A stretch of DNA of 44,405 bases from Escherichia phage EC3-1. Below, piece after piece: positions 31,713 through 32,208 of the stretch (its first letter is position 1; the number at the start of each line of letters is the position of its first letter). The position numbers and the translations under genes were made by a program. The DNA lies in the sequence record PQ571288.1. One strand, written 5' to 3'. The notes beneath the pieces are model-generated. The model had not been told where the DNA came from and did not search any database. It saw only the letters and a list, made by a program, of their open reading frames with translations.

Positions 31713-31976
31713 CTATTCCAGAATATTCCTCACGTAATCCTGCAGCATGAACACCTTCAGGCGCAGTTGCCGTACGCATTCGGCGTTCTGAACGTCGATA
31801 GCTAAGTCCTCGTCGGCGTCACTACTTGGTGGCGCCATTTTGCACGGCGGCTGCATCATCGTCGTATCCGGGGATGGAATTGGCGTTGGCGACGGCGCGG
31901 GACTTGAGCAGGACGCGAGCATCATCGAAAGTGCACACGCTGCGACCAGGCGTTTTAATGTACTTAACGACTTCAC
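31713..31976 (-). CDS. o-spanin (Rz1-like outer-membrane lipoprotein), overlapping the i-spanin gene
   Basis: Signal peptide with lipobox LASC followed by proline-rich SPAPSPTPIPSP; begins inside the Rz-like gene in another frame. Confidence 0.65.
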   Translation of the reverse strand: MKSLSTLKRLVAACALSMMLASCSSPAPSPTPIPSPDTTMMQPPCKMAPPSSDADEDLAIDVQNAECVRQLRLKVFMLQDYVRNILE

Positions 31977-32208
31977 GGGTGATCACCTCTGATTTCGTCT
32001 TGCCTTCGTTGTCAGCGGCTGCGGCCTTTGATTCATCCTGCTGCTGCCGTTGGGTTTTCTTCGCTAACTCAGCCTGTTCTTTCTGCTGTTGCTGCGAAAC
32101 GAGATTCGCCCGGCCTTCGCTCCAGCCGCTGCGGTACTGGTAGATGCCGTGTACGTAAGCCAGGATGATGAAACATGCTCCCGCTACGACAGTTGCTTTA
32201 AGATTCAT
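31822..32208 (-). CDS. i-spanin (Rz-like)
   Basis: N-terminal transmembrane segment, Gln/Glu-rich coiled-coil, overlapped by a lipoprotein gene. Confidence 0.6.
   Translation of the reverse strand: MNLKATVVAGACFIILAYVHGIYQYRSGWSEGRANLVSQQQQKEQAELAKKTQRQQQDESKAAAADNEGKTKSEVITREVVKYIKTPGRSVCTFDDARVLLKSRAVANANSIPGYDDDAAAVQNGATK

Follow-up and report, generated by a model that had tools for sequence, protein, structure and literature searches.

The closest described relatives of the lysis locus considered here belong to the Jersey spanin family of Kongari et al. (2018, BMC Bioinformatics 19:326; PMC6139136). Its members are the spanins of phages Jersey, SETP3, SE2, K1G, K1H, K1ind1-3, HK578, SSL-2009a, SO-1 and FSL SP-031 (PMC6139136). 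The two genes overlap by 155 bp in Jersey, compared with 8 bp in SP-031, and two cysteines of the o-spanin, Cys45 and Cys67, are conserved (PMC6139136). For the i-spanins of the Jersey subfamily, Kongari et al. predicted two helices and a linker with beta strands (PMC6139136). In phage Golestan, the spanins are encoded by ORFs 7 and 8, as against ORFs 66-68 for lysis (PMC7203180). Both the spanin pair and its distance from the other lysis genes are thus already known for Kagunavirus and this phage group, through the Jersey family of 2018 and through published genome papers and GenBank records that state the separation. No lysis-function experiment was found in the literature for any Jersey-family spanin; the assignment of spanin function is by analogy and draws wholly on phages lambda and T4. 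Spanins such as lambda Rz and Rz1 build up without harm to the cell as long as the peptidoglycan has not been degraded by the endolysin (summarised in PMC6139136). Spanins generally need intermolecular disulfides.

The sequence analysed here, referred to as the window, is the 44,405-nt stretch of Escherichia phage EC3-1 (PQ571288.1). It represents a Kagunavirus genome (Guernseyvirinae) with 96-97% nucleotide identity to known coliphages, and the nearest Kagunavirus genomes, at this same identity, have the corresponding ORFs annotated as i-spanin and o-spanin. Phage Sciku carries these annotations for both genes and cites K1G ADA82248/ADA82249 for them. Judged by its sequence, the EC3-1 pair is a direct member of the Jersey spanin family, and the K1G-type phages are its genus. 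The locus is very probably a Jersey-family overlapped two-component spanin that lies in the head module, has its own promoter and leaves the timing of lysis to the holin.

Lysis cassette and spanin pair

The holins and endolysin were found where they had been predicted (Table 1). The two holins match phrog_2359 and phrog_2508, and the true start of the endolysin probably lies inside its ORF. The endolysin stop and the Rz start are 7.8 kb apart, where about 8 kb had been predicted, and within the window the pair has no genetic linkage to the other lysis genes. A separate spanin pair next to the endolysin had been named as a ground for rejecting the prediction; neither the ORFs of at least 30 aa downstream of the endolysin nor a six-frame lipoprotein scan of the window included a second spanin, and a search for a unimolecular spanin, with a lipobox and a C-terminal transmembrane domain, found none.

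Table 1. Coordinates of the features of the spanin locus and the lysis cassette in the window.
Feature	Position	Strand	Basis or remark
Promoter-like element and 5' hairpin before scaffold gene	31656..31712	-	Conserved, motif enrichment
Hairpin AATCCGGG-TGG-CCCGGATT before scaffold gene	31674..31656	-	
TATTCT of scaffold promoter-like element	31689..31684	-	
TTGCCT of scaffold promoter-like element	31712..31707	-	Followed by 17-nt spacer with GGAATAATT
o-spanin gene (Rz1-like prolipoprotein, 87 aa)	31713..31976	-	phrog_1267, phrog_5672, lipobox
Dual-coding overlap, 155 nt	31822..31976	-	o-spanin in +1 frame relative to i-spanin
i-spanin gene (Rz-like, 128 aa)	31822..32208	-	ORF, ATG start, phrog_2536
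Terminator-like hairpin GCCCCGC-TTTA-TGGCGGGGC, then CTTTACTTATC	32233..32252	-	Terminator scan
Conserved structured leader RNA	32326..32432	-	Fold z-score, covariance model, covariation
Spanin-unit promoter region (predicted)	32433..32513	-	Consensus reading, conserved architecture
-10 TAAGCT, spanin promoter (predicted)	32438..32433	-	17-nt spacer ending TGc
-35 TTGACT, spanin promoter (predicted)	32461..32456	-	
Palindrome CTATTCGAATAG in spanin promoter region	32473..32462	-	
GTAATAAACTATTC in spanin promoter region	32481..32468	-	
TATTCCAGTTATTCC in spanin promoter region	32513..32499	-	
Bidirectional terminator-like hairpin	32808..32827	.	Terminator scan; annotated in Sciku, PVP-SE2
Lysis cassette (two holins and endolysin)	40005..41044	-	PHROG/Pfam matches, Sciku annotation
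Lysozyme-family endolysin ORF	40005..40544	-	PF00959 Phage_lysozyme, E 1.9e-25
Second holin	40471..40743	-	PHROG holin match
Holin/antiholin	40736..41044	-	PHROG holin match

The i-spanin gene is preceded by the Shine-Dalgarno sequence AGGAG (32217..32213), and in the PHROG search its product matches the Rz-like spanins of phrog_2536 over the full length (E 1e-54). The protein has a single hydrophobic segment, residues 5-23, which follows Lys4 and reaches a 19-residue Kyte-Doolittle maximum of 1.85, while all other segments stay at or below 1.6. This profile suggests a type II, N-in/C-out topology with one N-terminal transmembrane domain. A predicted long helix rich in Q, E, K and A comes after the transmembrane segment, and the conserved C-terminal domain (ITREVVKYxxxPGRxVCxF...NANxIPGYD) contains the invariant Cys92. 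A single-sequence AF2 model, of low confidence (average pLDDT 60.5, below 50 past residue 102), has helices at residues 3-64, 66-84 and 94-107, the transmembrane segment being modelled as a helix.

Related i-spanins are widespread. Rz homologues are present in 625 phage records, and tblastn identities are 90-96% within Kagunavirus and 61-77% to Jerseyvirus. Pfam and NCBIfam return no significant family for the protein; its Pfam matches are noise under the cutoff (e.g. DUF2514, E 0.028), the lambda-type Rz and Rz1 models give no Pfam match at E <= 0.1, and a PDB sequence search retrieved no related solved structure.

The o-spanin gene starts inside the i-spanin gene and extends 109 nt past its stop. 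Its GTG is the first start codon past an in-frame TGA and lies behind a strong Shine-Dalgarno sequence, GAGGTGA (31989..31983). The lipoprotein with lipobox LASC and a proline-rich stretch that the original prediction had placed here is present: the signal MKSLSTLKRLVAACALSMMLAS-C23-SS has a positive n-region, a hydrophobic core and the lipobox, and residues 24-52, which are 34% Pro, form the linker. The +2 residue after the lipobox Cys23 is Ser and not Asp, the inner-membrane retention residue thus being absent, and the predicted mature form, from Cys23, has 65 aa. Further cysteines at positions 45 and 67 are invariant in a 12-sequence alignment and in 79 loci, and the protein carries a conserved D[AS]DEDL motif and a predicted C-terminal helix. 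In a low-confidence single-sequence AF2 model (pLDDT 64), a signal helix (3-22) is followed by disorder (23-53) and a second helix (54-86). PHROG matches are to phrog_1267 (E 8e-19) and phrog_5672 (E 2e-30). The Pfam and NCBIfam searches gave no significant family, only sub-threshold P2 LysC matches to PF23793 (E 0.09, 13.1 bits against a cutoff of 27) and NF038368 (E 0.015, 15.5 bits against 27); with scores so far under the curated cutoffs, the o-spanin is not a member of the P2 LysC family.

Within the overlap, the DNA encodes the conserved C-terminal domain of the i-spanin in one frame and, in the other, the signal peptide and linker of the o-spanin. The overlap length varies among relatives (8, 14, 98, 125, 137, 143, 152-158 and 173 nt), and signal peptides vary as well, while the cysteines and the D[AS]DEDL motif are invariant. 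Diversity by codon position indicates that each frame is under purifying selection where that frame is the constrained one. With both ORFs in place, PHROG spanin matches for each and the out-of-frame overlap, the predicted Rz/Rz1-type two-component spanin of overlapped architecture is borne out.

The state of the public records could lead one to regard the lipoprotein ORF as a product of chance and the 128-aa membrane protein alone as real. These records are inconsistent: several call only a 147-nt ORF from Met41 or label both genes "hypothetical", and many GenBank records annotate no o-spanin or just a 48-aa fragment of it. Gene callers, moreover, disfavour overlapping genes (PMC6139136). This explanation is scarcely credible and can be considered effectively refuted. 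The loss of the lipoprotein frame in related phages had been named beforehand as grounds for rejecting the prediction; frame and lipobox are intact in 79 of 79 related loci and are kept, together with the two periplasmic cysteines, down to about 40% i-spanin identity. Phages of the SP-031/VSiP type encode the same protein with an overlap of only 8 nt, so the existence of the o-spanin is independent of the i-spanin frame. Where the DNA encodes the o-spanin only, nucleotide diversity by codon position is 0.090/0.029/0.245, and this bias to the third position implies purifying selection on the o-spanin frame. When the six frames of the window were scanned for lipoprotein signals, the o-spanin was the sole credible candidate, the other matches lying within or antisense to large genes or having mature parts of 5-8 residues. 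Together, the scan, the 79 intact frames and the codon-position diversity place the ORF beyond chance, and the strong Shine-Dalgarno sequence ahead of the GTG likewise speaks against a chance ORF.

Position of the pair across relatives

The spanin pair is located inside the head-gene module, between a Hoc-like decoration gene and the scaffold gene. This embedding occurs in all Guernseyvirinae loci examined and in Dhillonvirus, the gene order of the head module being shared by 52 IMG/VR loci and by annotated records of Kagunavirus, Jerseyvirus, Cornellvirus and Dhillonvirus. The head-module position is an old conserved feature of Guernseyvirinae and Dhillonvirus and not a recent displacement.

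Close homologues of the spanin pair occupy canonical cassettes elsewhere. A homologous pair (38-45% identity) lies directly 3' of the endolysin in 27 of 28 distant IMG/VR loci, the same arrangement is found in Klebsiella phage Kp4885-1, and in Klebsiella prophage-like contigs homologues of about 40% identity come directly after the endolysin.

A role in virion assembly or another function outside lysis, for instance in superinfection exclusion or in anchoring assembly to the membrane, would give the strict conservation of the pair between head morphogenesis/Hoc-like and scaffold/major capsid genes a ready meaning, and the promoter regions of the spanin pair and of the scaffold gene share a sequence motif. 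Such a role is nevertheless very improbable. In other phages and prophages, the homologues of about 40% identity stand in the canonical place after the endolysin. A type II inner-membrane protein together with an outer-membrane lipoprotein, both with conserved cysteines, is the defining spanin signature, and the window holds no other candidate for outer-membrane disruption. T4 provides the precedent of functional spanins unlinked to the holin and endolysin genes (PMC6139136). The head-module position most likely means that the spanins are made together with virion structural proteins, and no more than that.

Control region

The pair had been placed at the head of the capsid operon. It does precede the scaffold and capsid genes, but the description is only approximately right: a conserved promoter-like element and a 5' hairpin separate the Rz1 stop from the scaffold start. 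This element is conserved in all Guernseyvirinae-type loci, its hairpin with compensatory changes, and it is kept even where a terminator and a reverse-strand gene part Rz1 from the scaffold gene. Cornellvirus-type relatives have a terminator after Rz1 and often a reverse-strand gene too. The scaffold gene's own promoter-like element and this terminator make the pair an apparent small separate unit.

A control region of its own had also been ascribed to the pair, and such a region was found, composed of a predicted promoter, a conserved structured leader RNA and a terminator-like hairpin about 25 nt before Rz. The architecture of the spanin promoter is conserved in Kaguna-, Jersey- and SP-031-type loci, and in PVP-SE2 a promoter is annotated at the same place. 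From their sequences, both this region and the element before the scaffold gene appear to act as promoters. A GGAATAAnnTATTC match at 28979..28992 was rejected as a regulatory site, being the ribosome-binding site and ATG of a connector gene. Further upstream, the bidirectional hairpin closes the portal/head-morphogenesis/Hoc-like genes as well as a small plus-strand gene (32591..32803).

The terminator-like hairpin ends about 25 nt before the Rz ATG and forms the GC-rich upper part of a longer stem; the window has another, identical copy of 28 nt at 453..480. Kagunavirus, Jerseyvirus and Cornellvirus all have a long hairpin before the Rz Shine-Dalgarno sequence, the sequences being unrelated, and the U-tract 3' of it is weak in the Jersey and Cornell types. 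Sequestration of the Rz Shine-Dalgarno sequence by an upstream GUUUCU is restricted to the Kaguna type, is not kept in other genera and was discarded. Dhillonvirus lacks a control region altogether, its i-spanin gene beginning where the minor capsid gene ends.

The original prediction further held that the last lysis step is under separate transcriptional control. Terminator-like sites and differing promoter types do part the spanin unit from the lysis cassette, but they do not establish that this step has its own control or timing. The one RNA-seq paper on a Kagunavirus (K1B4) assigns lysozyme and capsid genes to a single broad class and reports no temporal class for the spanin genes (PMC12645636).

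Leader RNA

The leader RNA lies directly downstream of the promoter and consists of a short 5' hairpin and a stem-loop of about 65 nt. Its fold z-score is -3.16, and its covariance model finds a single match in the window (127.6 bits). In a covariation alignment that was fitted to the covariance model itself, 91.6% of cells are paired as against 80.7% in shuffles (a value reached by none of 500), both partners differ in 13 of the pairs, and slid controls remain at or below 42% paired. Per-sequence folds and the covariance-model alignment replaced RNAalifold on a MAFFT alignment, in which the consensus for the leader core was weak because the inner helices were misaligned. The fold is kept with compensatory changes across Kaguna- and Jersey-type phages. 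An enclosing helix (model pairs 4-6 with 108-110) was dropped for lack of covariation, and its 5' strand is probably upstream of the transcript start. A 36-aa ORF (32303..32413) that overlaps the leader RNA was rejected as a leader peptide, its ATG being lost in one relative (L037) and the ORF being absent from Jersey-type leaders. Rfam gave no family at gathering thresholds for the whole window, nor at E <= 10 for 32180..32600, and ARAGORN found no tRNA or tmRNA.

The leader RNA and the following hairpin may be more than an ordinary leader, namely an attenuation or antitermination device, comparable to HK022 put or lambda PR'-tR', or a small-RNA gene with read-through into Rz/Rz1, by which spanin output would be set apart from the lysis cassette and the capsid genes. 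The close packing of three elements directly ahead of the Rz Shine-Dalgarno sequence, namely the promoter, the RNA of some 205 nt and the terminator-like hairpin, would fit such a device, as would the conservation of the fold with compensatory changes in two phage types and the recurrence of the long hairpin in three genera despite unrelated sequences. In some Kagunaviruses, including Sciku, a second copy of the RNA heads the holin/endolysin operon, and HK022 put also comprises two copies of two stem-loops just 3' of promoters (PMC9378689). Several observations make special control of this kind unlikely all the same. Cornellvirus and Dhillonvirus keep the spanin position without the leader RNA, Dhillonvirus even without a control region, and the U-tract is weak in two of the hairpin types. 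The RNA has no sequence similarity to Rfam families, and the covariation comes from an alignment fitted to the model. The Kagunavirus RNA-seq grouping of lysozyme with capsid genes is broad and leaves the spanins undiscussed (PMC12645636).

Only tentatively can the leader be proposed as a conserved, undescribed RNA that acts in cis in Kaguna- and Jersey-type phages, whether by put-like antitermination, by attenuation or as a small RNA of the phage, with two stem-loops directly after a sigma-70 promoter and a terminator-like hairpin about 100 nt further on; the chances of this are rather low. If it were true, the RNA of two-copy relatives would tie together the expression of both halves of lysis, the holin/endolysin operon and the spanin/capsid unit. 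The unannotated leader RNA is the only element of the locus that could yield something new.

Proposed mechanism and significance

The preferred reading of the locus as a Jersey-family spanin under its own promoter suggests the following course. Expression of the pair would start at its sigma-70-type promoter and run through a structured leader of about 205-220 nt; the scaffold and capsid genes come next, with a promoter-like element of their own. The i-spanin would be anchored in the inner membrane as a type II protein, its periplasmic domain being largely helical, and the o-spanin would be a lipoprotein of the outer membrane that has a Pro-rich tether and ends in a helix. As is the case for lambda Rz/Rz1, the two would bind via their periplasmic ends to give complexes that span the periplasm and that the peptidoglycan mesh keeps from acting. 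Three periplasmic cysteines are invariant, C92 of the i-spanin and C45 and C67 of the o-spanin, and they probably form intermolecular disulfides. After holin triggering and destruction of the wall by the endolysin, the spanins would, as in lambda, fuse or disrupt the outer membrane. Since spanins are harmless until the peptidoglycan is removed, lysis timing is set by the holin and not by spanin transcription.

The spanins themselves are a textbook, already catalogued case of little import. The practical value lies in annotation, as many GenBank and RefSeq records of the phage group miss, truncate or mislabel the o-spanin, and phages of this group are under development as therapy against K1 E. 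coli and Salmonella. The conserved head-module placement in two phage groups, with close homologues in canonical cassettes elsewhere, reinforces a known point: for the last step of lysis, the spanins need not be transcribed together with holin and endolysin.

Comparison with known systems

The leader region resembles HK022 put and the lambda PR'-6S RNA-tR' segment in layout only: a promoter is followed directly by a short structured RNA, and the first late or lysis gene is preceded by a terminator-like hairpin. The two stem-loops, and the two copies per genome in some relatives, are further likenesses to put. There is no sequence similarity to put or to the lambda late leader, and no antitermination protein is annotated in the genus, nor a Q-like antiterminator in the well-annotated relative Sciku. 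Stx phages are known to have short leader RNAs that are terminated ahead of the late and lysis genes (PMC7547250).

The EC3-1 pair follows the two-protein logic of lambda Rz/Rz1: an inner-membrane protein of type II, whose periplasmic part is tentatively predicted to be helical like that of lambda Rz, is combined with a small Pro-rich outer-membrane lipoprotein encoded out of frame within or over its gene. Both pairs have periplasmic cysteines and, presumably, the same last lysis step. Homology to the lambda proteins is not detectable in Pfam. Lambda Rz1 is fully embedded in Rz, whereas the EC3-1 o-spanin runs 109 nt beyond the i-spanin. Mature lambda Rz1 has 40 aa; the mature EC3-1 o-spanin is longer, at 65 aa, and has a predicted C-terminal helix. 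The lambda pair forms the end of the S-R-Rz/Rz1 cassette, unlike the EC3-1 pair, which lies 7.8 kb off in the head module. The P2 pair LysB/LysC also has an overlapped architecture and lies in the lysis cassette. T4 PseT.3/PseT.2 belong to a different sequence family with a separated architecture; all T4 lysis genes are scattered, whereas in EC3-1 the holins and endolysin are clustered and the spanins alone are apart. This T4 precedent shows that linkage to the cassette, though typical of spanins, does not define them and is not required for their function. The Jersey family is the closest match, with the same sequence family and overlapped architecture and with the 155-nt overlap and the o-spanin cysteines 45 and 67 as in Jersey. 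Nothing of substance differs from this family, and a few amino-acid substitutions separate the EC3-1 pair from the nearest records, with i-spanin identities of 91-96% within Kagunavirus.

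The overlapping spanin genes

The top matches among the 221 records retrieved with 31600..32500 (megablast, phage collection) are Kagunavirus (Guernseyvirinae) coliphages with 95-97% identity across the entire query, which identifies the window as a Kagunavirus genome. Its ORF order agrees with that of the annotated relatives Sciku and fEg-Eco06. The original prediction described and placed the pair correctly, and the label "overlapped" is justified by ORFs, starts, lipobox and an overlap of 155 nt, beyond which the o-spanin (Rz1) gene extends 109 nt past the i-spanin (Rz) stop. 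The i-spanin has only one hydrophobic segment (residues 5-23). The o-spanin starts at GTG 31976, the earliest start codon past an in-frame TGA, with GAGGTGA six bases ahead of it. Its N-terminus, MKSLSTLKRLVAACALSMMLAS-C23-SS, comprises a positively charged n-region, a hydrophobic core and the lipobox LASC. The residue after the lipobox Cys is Ser, not Asp; the stretch that follows contains 34% proline, and additional Cys residues are found at positions 45 and 67.

The i-spanin matches the spanin family phrog_2536 over its full length (E 1e-54), and the o-spanin matches the PHROG spanin families phrog_1267 (E 8e-19) and phrog_5672 (E 2e-30). A six-frame lipoprotein-signal scan of the window yielded no other credible lipoprotein ORF, the remaining matches being alternative frames or antisense of large genes, or mature peptides of 5-8 residues. 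Single-sequence AlphaFold models, both of low confidence, comprise helices 3-64, 66-84 and 94-107 for the i-spanin (pLDDT 60.5) and a signal helix, a disordered Pro-rich part (23-53) and a helix (54-86) for the o-spanin (pLDDT 64.5); with that reservation, they would fit lambda/T4-type working.

Features of the spanin locus and related elements (window coordinates unless a record is named)
Feature	Coordinates	Strand	Remarks
Holin	40736..41044	-	confirmed
Second holin	40471..40743	-	confirmed
Endolysin	40005..40544	-	ORF, lysozyme family; confirmed
Terminator-like hairpin	32808..32827	both	closes portal, head-morphogenesis and Hoc-like genes
Membrane-protein gene	32591..32803	+	70 aa; phrog_26710 (unknown function); N-terminal hydrophobic segment, two Cys
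Sigma-70-like site	32567..32539	-	spacer motif GTGAATAGTAyCCTATTAT
Further copies of this site	~172..200; ~3972..3994; ~4021..4042; ~23362..23383	+; +; +; -
Predicted Rz promoter	32461..32433	-	TTGACT abutted by palindrome CTATTCGAATAG, 17-nt spacer, TGcTAAGCT
Structured RNA element	32326..32432	-	directly 3' of TTGACT-17-TAAGCT promoter, upstream of Rz; unannotated
GC-rich terminator-like hairpin	32252..32233	-	partial U-tract; ends leader only about 25 nt ahead of Rz ATG
i-spanin gene (Rz)	31822..32208	-	128-aa ORF, ATG, AGGAG Shine-Dalgarno
o-spanin gene (Rz1)	31713..31976	-	87-aa ORF, +1 frame
Promoter-like element and hairpin before scaffold gene	31656..31712	-	TTGCCT-17-TATTCT; begins right after Rz1 stop codon
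Leader RNA in other loci	L141 4166..4274; L107 21..129; L112 1786..1894; L145 8502..8610; Sciku 37532..37639
Further mis-annotated o-spanin records	fEg-Eco06 3114..3260; L007; L008; K1B4_031

Homologues of the i-spanin occur in 625 phage records (tblastn), and 12 annotated loci and 80 IMG/VR loci were compared. The lipoprotein frame proved to be conserved in related phages: an intact lipobox ORF lies in another frame or just 3' of the i-spanin in all 79 IMG/VR loci in which the i-spanin start is present. These ORFs always keep two periplasmic Cys (PPCK..., NAEC...) and the D[AS]DEDL motif. Their signal peptides differ between subgroups and are unrelated, and the overlap varies from 8 to 173 nt, which indicates that conservation of the o-spanin does not depend on the i-spanin frame. 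Where the o-spanin alone is encoded, diversity at the three codon positions is 0.090/0.029/0.245 (35 distinct Kaguna/Jersey sequences). Within the overlap, the i-spanin frame sets the diversity pattern over most of the length, and the o-spanin frame governs it instead in the last 13 i-spanin codons.

Annotation of the o-spanin is wrong in many records, where the called gene is no more than a C-terminal fragment of 41-48 aa that begins at an internal Met and has neither signal peptide nor lipobox; fragments of this kind make up phrog_5672. In the RefSeq record of PVP-SE2 (NC_073186, 2001..2496), the 387-nt gene is labelled "o-spanin" and a 126-nt fragment "i-spanin".

Placement of the pair

The predicted displacement from the holin-endolysin cassette is borne out, with 7.8 kb between cassette and Rz start, and neither the six-frame lipoprotein scan nor the ORFs of at least 30 aa downstream of the endolysin revealed a separate spanin pair beside it. 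The pair precedes the scaffold gene in 52/52 Guernseyvirinae-type IMG/VR loci, and no homologue of the two endolysin queries lies within 3 kb of it in any of these. Head-morphogenesis and/or Hoc-like genes lie upstream in those with enough flank, one locus (L062) excepted, and annotated Kagunavirus, Jerseyvirus and Cornellvirus records have the same gene order. In the Dhillonvirus records (GeorgBuechner, SO-1), the i-spanin starts at the extreme end of the minor capsid gene. This shared placement thus indicates that the pair was not displaced recently but has long resided, as a stable trait, in the head module of two phage groups.

In Klebsiella phage Kp4885-1, a homologous pair lies directly 3' of the endolysin gene, as it does in 27 of the 28 IMG/VR loci with 38-45% i-spanin identity. 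Judged by gene order, these distant homologues in the canonical post-endolysin position provide the decisive contextual evidence for spanin function. The endolysin preceding the pair in Kp4885-1 (about 1490..1994) and in loci L065-L092 has a hydrophobic N-terminus (MAMTPKLRNSVIAAVGGGAIAIASALITGP...) and resembles the signal-anchor-release (SAR) type; the window endolysin, unlike these, has no such segment.

Control region and transcription units

Upstream of Rz, direct and inverted TATTCC/GGAATA repeats are followed by the palindrome of the predicted promoter, the architecture of which is kept in Kaguna-, Jersey- and SP-031-type phages and which coincides with the annotated promoter of PVP-SE2. 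Transcription would start near 32426, giving a leader of about 205-220 nt. The window has two copies, 100% identical, of a GC-rich hairpin sequence of 28 nt, AGCGCCCCGCTTTATGGCGGGGCTTTA: one just ahead of Rz (32229..32256), the other at 453..480 (+), with a promoter-like site of the early region ~260 nt upstream of it.

The original prediction placed the pair at the head of the capsid operon behind its own control region. The predicted promoter, leader and hairpin ahead of Rz agree with this, and the capsid genes lie downstream, but the scaffold gene has a promoter-like element of its own. All Guernseyvirinae-type loci keep this element and the hairpin AATCCGGG-TGG-CCCGGATT, the stem of which shows compensatory changes. 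Both persist where Rz1 is followed by a strong terminator and often by a reverse-strand gene (Cornellvirus-type loci L056, L060, L062 and L058). The spanin pair therefore appears to form a small separate unit ahead of the scaffold/capsid unit. The motif GGAATAA-NN-TATTC is common to the Rz and scaffold promoter regions (13 matches at <=2 mismatches vs 3.2 expected); at <=1 mismatch it matches these two sites and 28979, the last being a ribosome-binding site and discarded as a regulatory site.

Terminator-like sites at 37807..37792 and 32827..32808 separate the lysis cassette from the spanins, and the Sciku annotation has terminators behind the endolysin, ahead of the small terminase gene and behind the Hoc-like gene; different transcription units for cassette and spanins are thus plausible from the sequence. 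The separate control of the last lysis step that had been drawn from this is not implied, because spanin action would be gated by wall degradation. The sole Kagunavirus RNA-seq study assigns lysozyme, Mu-F-like and capsid genes to one broad "middle" class and does not mention the spanins (PMC12645636).

The sigma-70-like site upstream is one of five sigma-70-like promoters in the window with a near-palindrome in the spacer, the best being TTGACA-17-TATAGT. The motif looks like an operator within the promoter and may be the binding site of a phage HTH/Cro-like regulator. Sciku lacks the membrane-protein gene that separates the Hoc-like gene from the spanin control region, and other phages carry a methyltransferase (S103), a PAPS reductase (SP-031) or a different hypothetical gene (fEg-Eco06) there; the site seems to be an insertion hotspot for accessory genes. 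In the early control region, a strong sigma-70-like promoter, TTGACA-16-TAAAAT at 542..569 (-), faces the plus-strand site at ~172..200 from roughly 350 nt away.

A predicted structured leader RNA

The leader RNA folds into a short 5' hairpin and a stem-loop of about 65 nt, an architecture that Kaguna- and Jersey-type phages share with differing inner-helix sequences. The 36-aa hypothetical protein annotated in relatives at 32303..32413 was rejected, its ORF not being conserved. A covariance model built from eight sequences has one match in the window (127.6 bits), matches of 100-128 bits ahead of Rz in the other Kaguna-type loci that were searched, weaker ones in Jersey-type loci (26-40 bits) and none in Cornellvirus, Dhillonvirus and Klebsiella loci.

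Some Kagunaviruses (L107, L112, L141, L145 and, at 37532..37639, Sciku) carry a second copy within the divergent early control region, where it heads an operon running from small genes through a protease gene to holins and endolysin; it occupies the place of the 542..569 promoter. In Sciku, the "hypothetical protein" ORFs CPT_Sciku_007 and _053 overlap the two copies and are probably not genes.

In the alignment, 91.6% of cells are paired vs 80.7% in shuffles (0/500 as high; slid controls <=42%), 13 pairs are altered on both sides (9/500 shuffles), and the covariation score is 0.298 vs 0.110 (0/500). These figures were computed on a model-fitted alignment, which favours structure, so the covariation is suggestive of a conserved structure rather than proof. 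No Rfam family corresponds to the element, and no paper on it was found. It could serve in put-like antitermination or attenuation, as a 5' stabiliser, or as a small RNA; HK022 put (PMC9378689) resembles it in layout but not in sequence. It is the only element of the locus that is possibly new.

Comparison with known spanins

The observation is confirmed and the spanin interpretation supported; the pair and its separation from the cassette were already known. Kongari et al. 2018 defined "Jersey" i- and o-spanin families of the overlapped class, listing K1G, K1H, K1ind1-3, HK578, SSL-2009a, SO-1 and FSL SP-031, with an overlap of 155 bp in Jersey vs 8 bp in SP-031, and with Cys45 and Cys67 conserved in the o-spanin (PMC6139136); all these features were recovered exactly here. 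The Sciku record labels the same ORFs i-spanin and o-spanin with reference to K1G, and the Golestan (PMC7203180) and fBC-Eco01 papers report spanins as ORF 7/8 or 11/12, with lysis genes near the opposite genome end.

Our literature search found no experiments on the Jersey-type family. By the established lambda and T4 model (PMC6139136), the inner membrane would anchor the i-spanin and the outer membrane the lipoprotein, the two proteins joining via their periplasmic parts, with the conserved cysteines giving covalent dimers. Peptidoglycan would keep them inactive up to holin triggering and endolysin action; after loss of the wall, they would bring about a fusion that disrupts the outer membrane. 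Unlinked spanins have their classical precedent in T4 (PMC6139136). The pair lies outside the sequence families of lambda Rz/Rz1 and P2 LysB/LysC, yet it may be likened to them in its mode of working.
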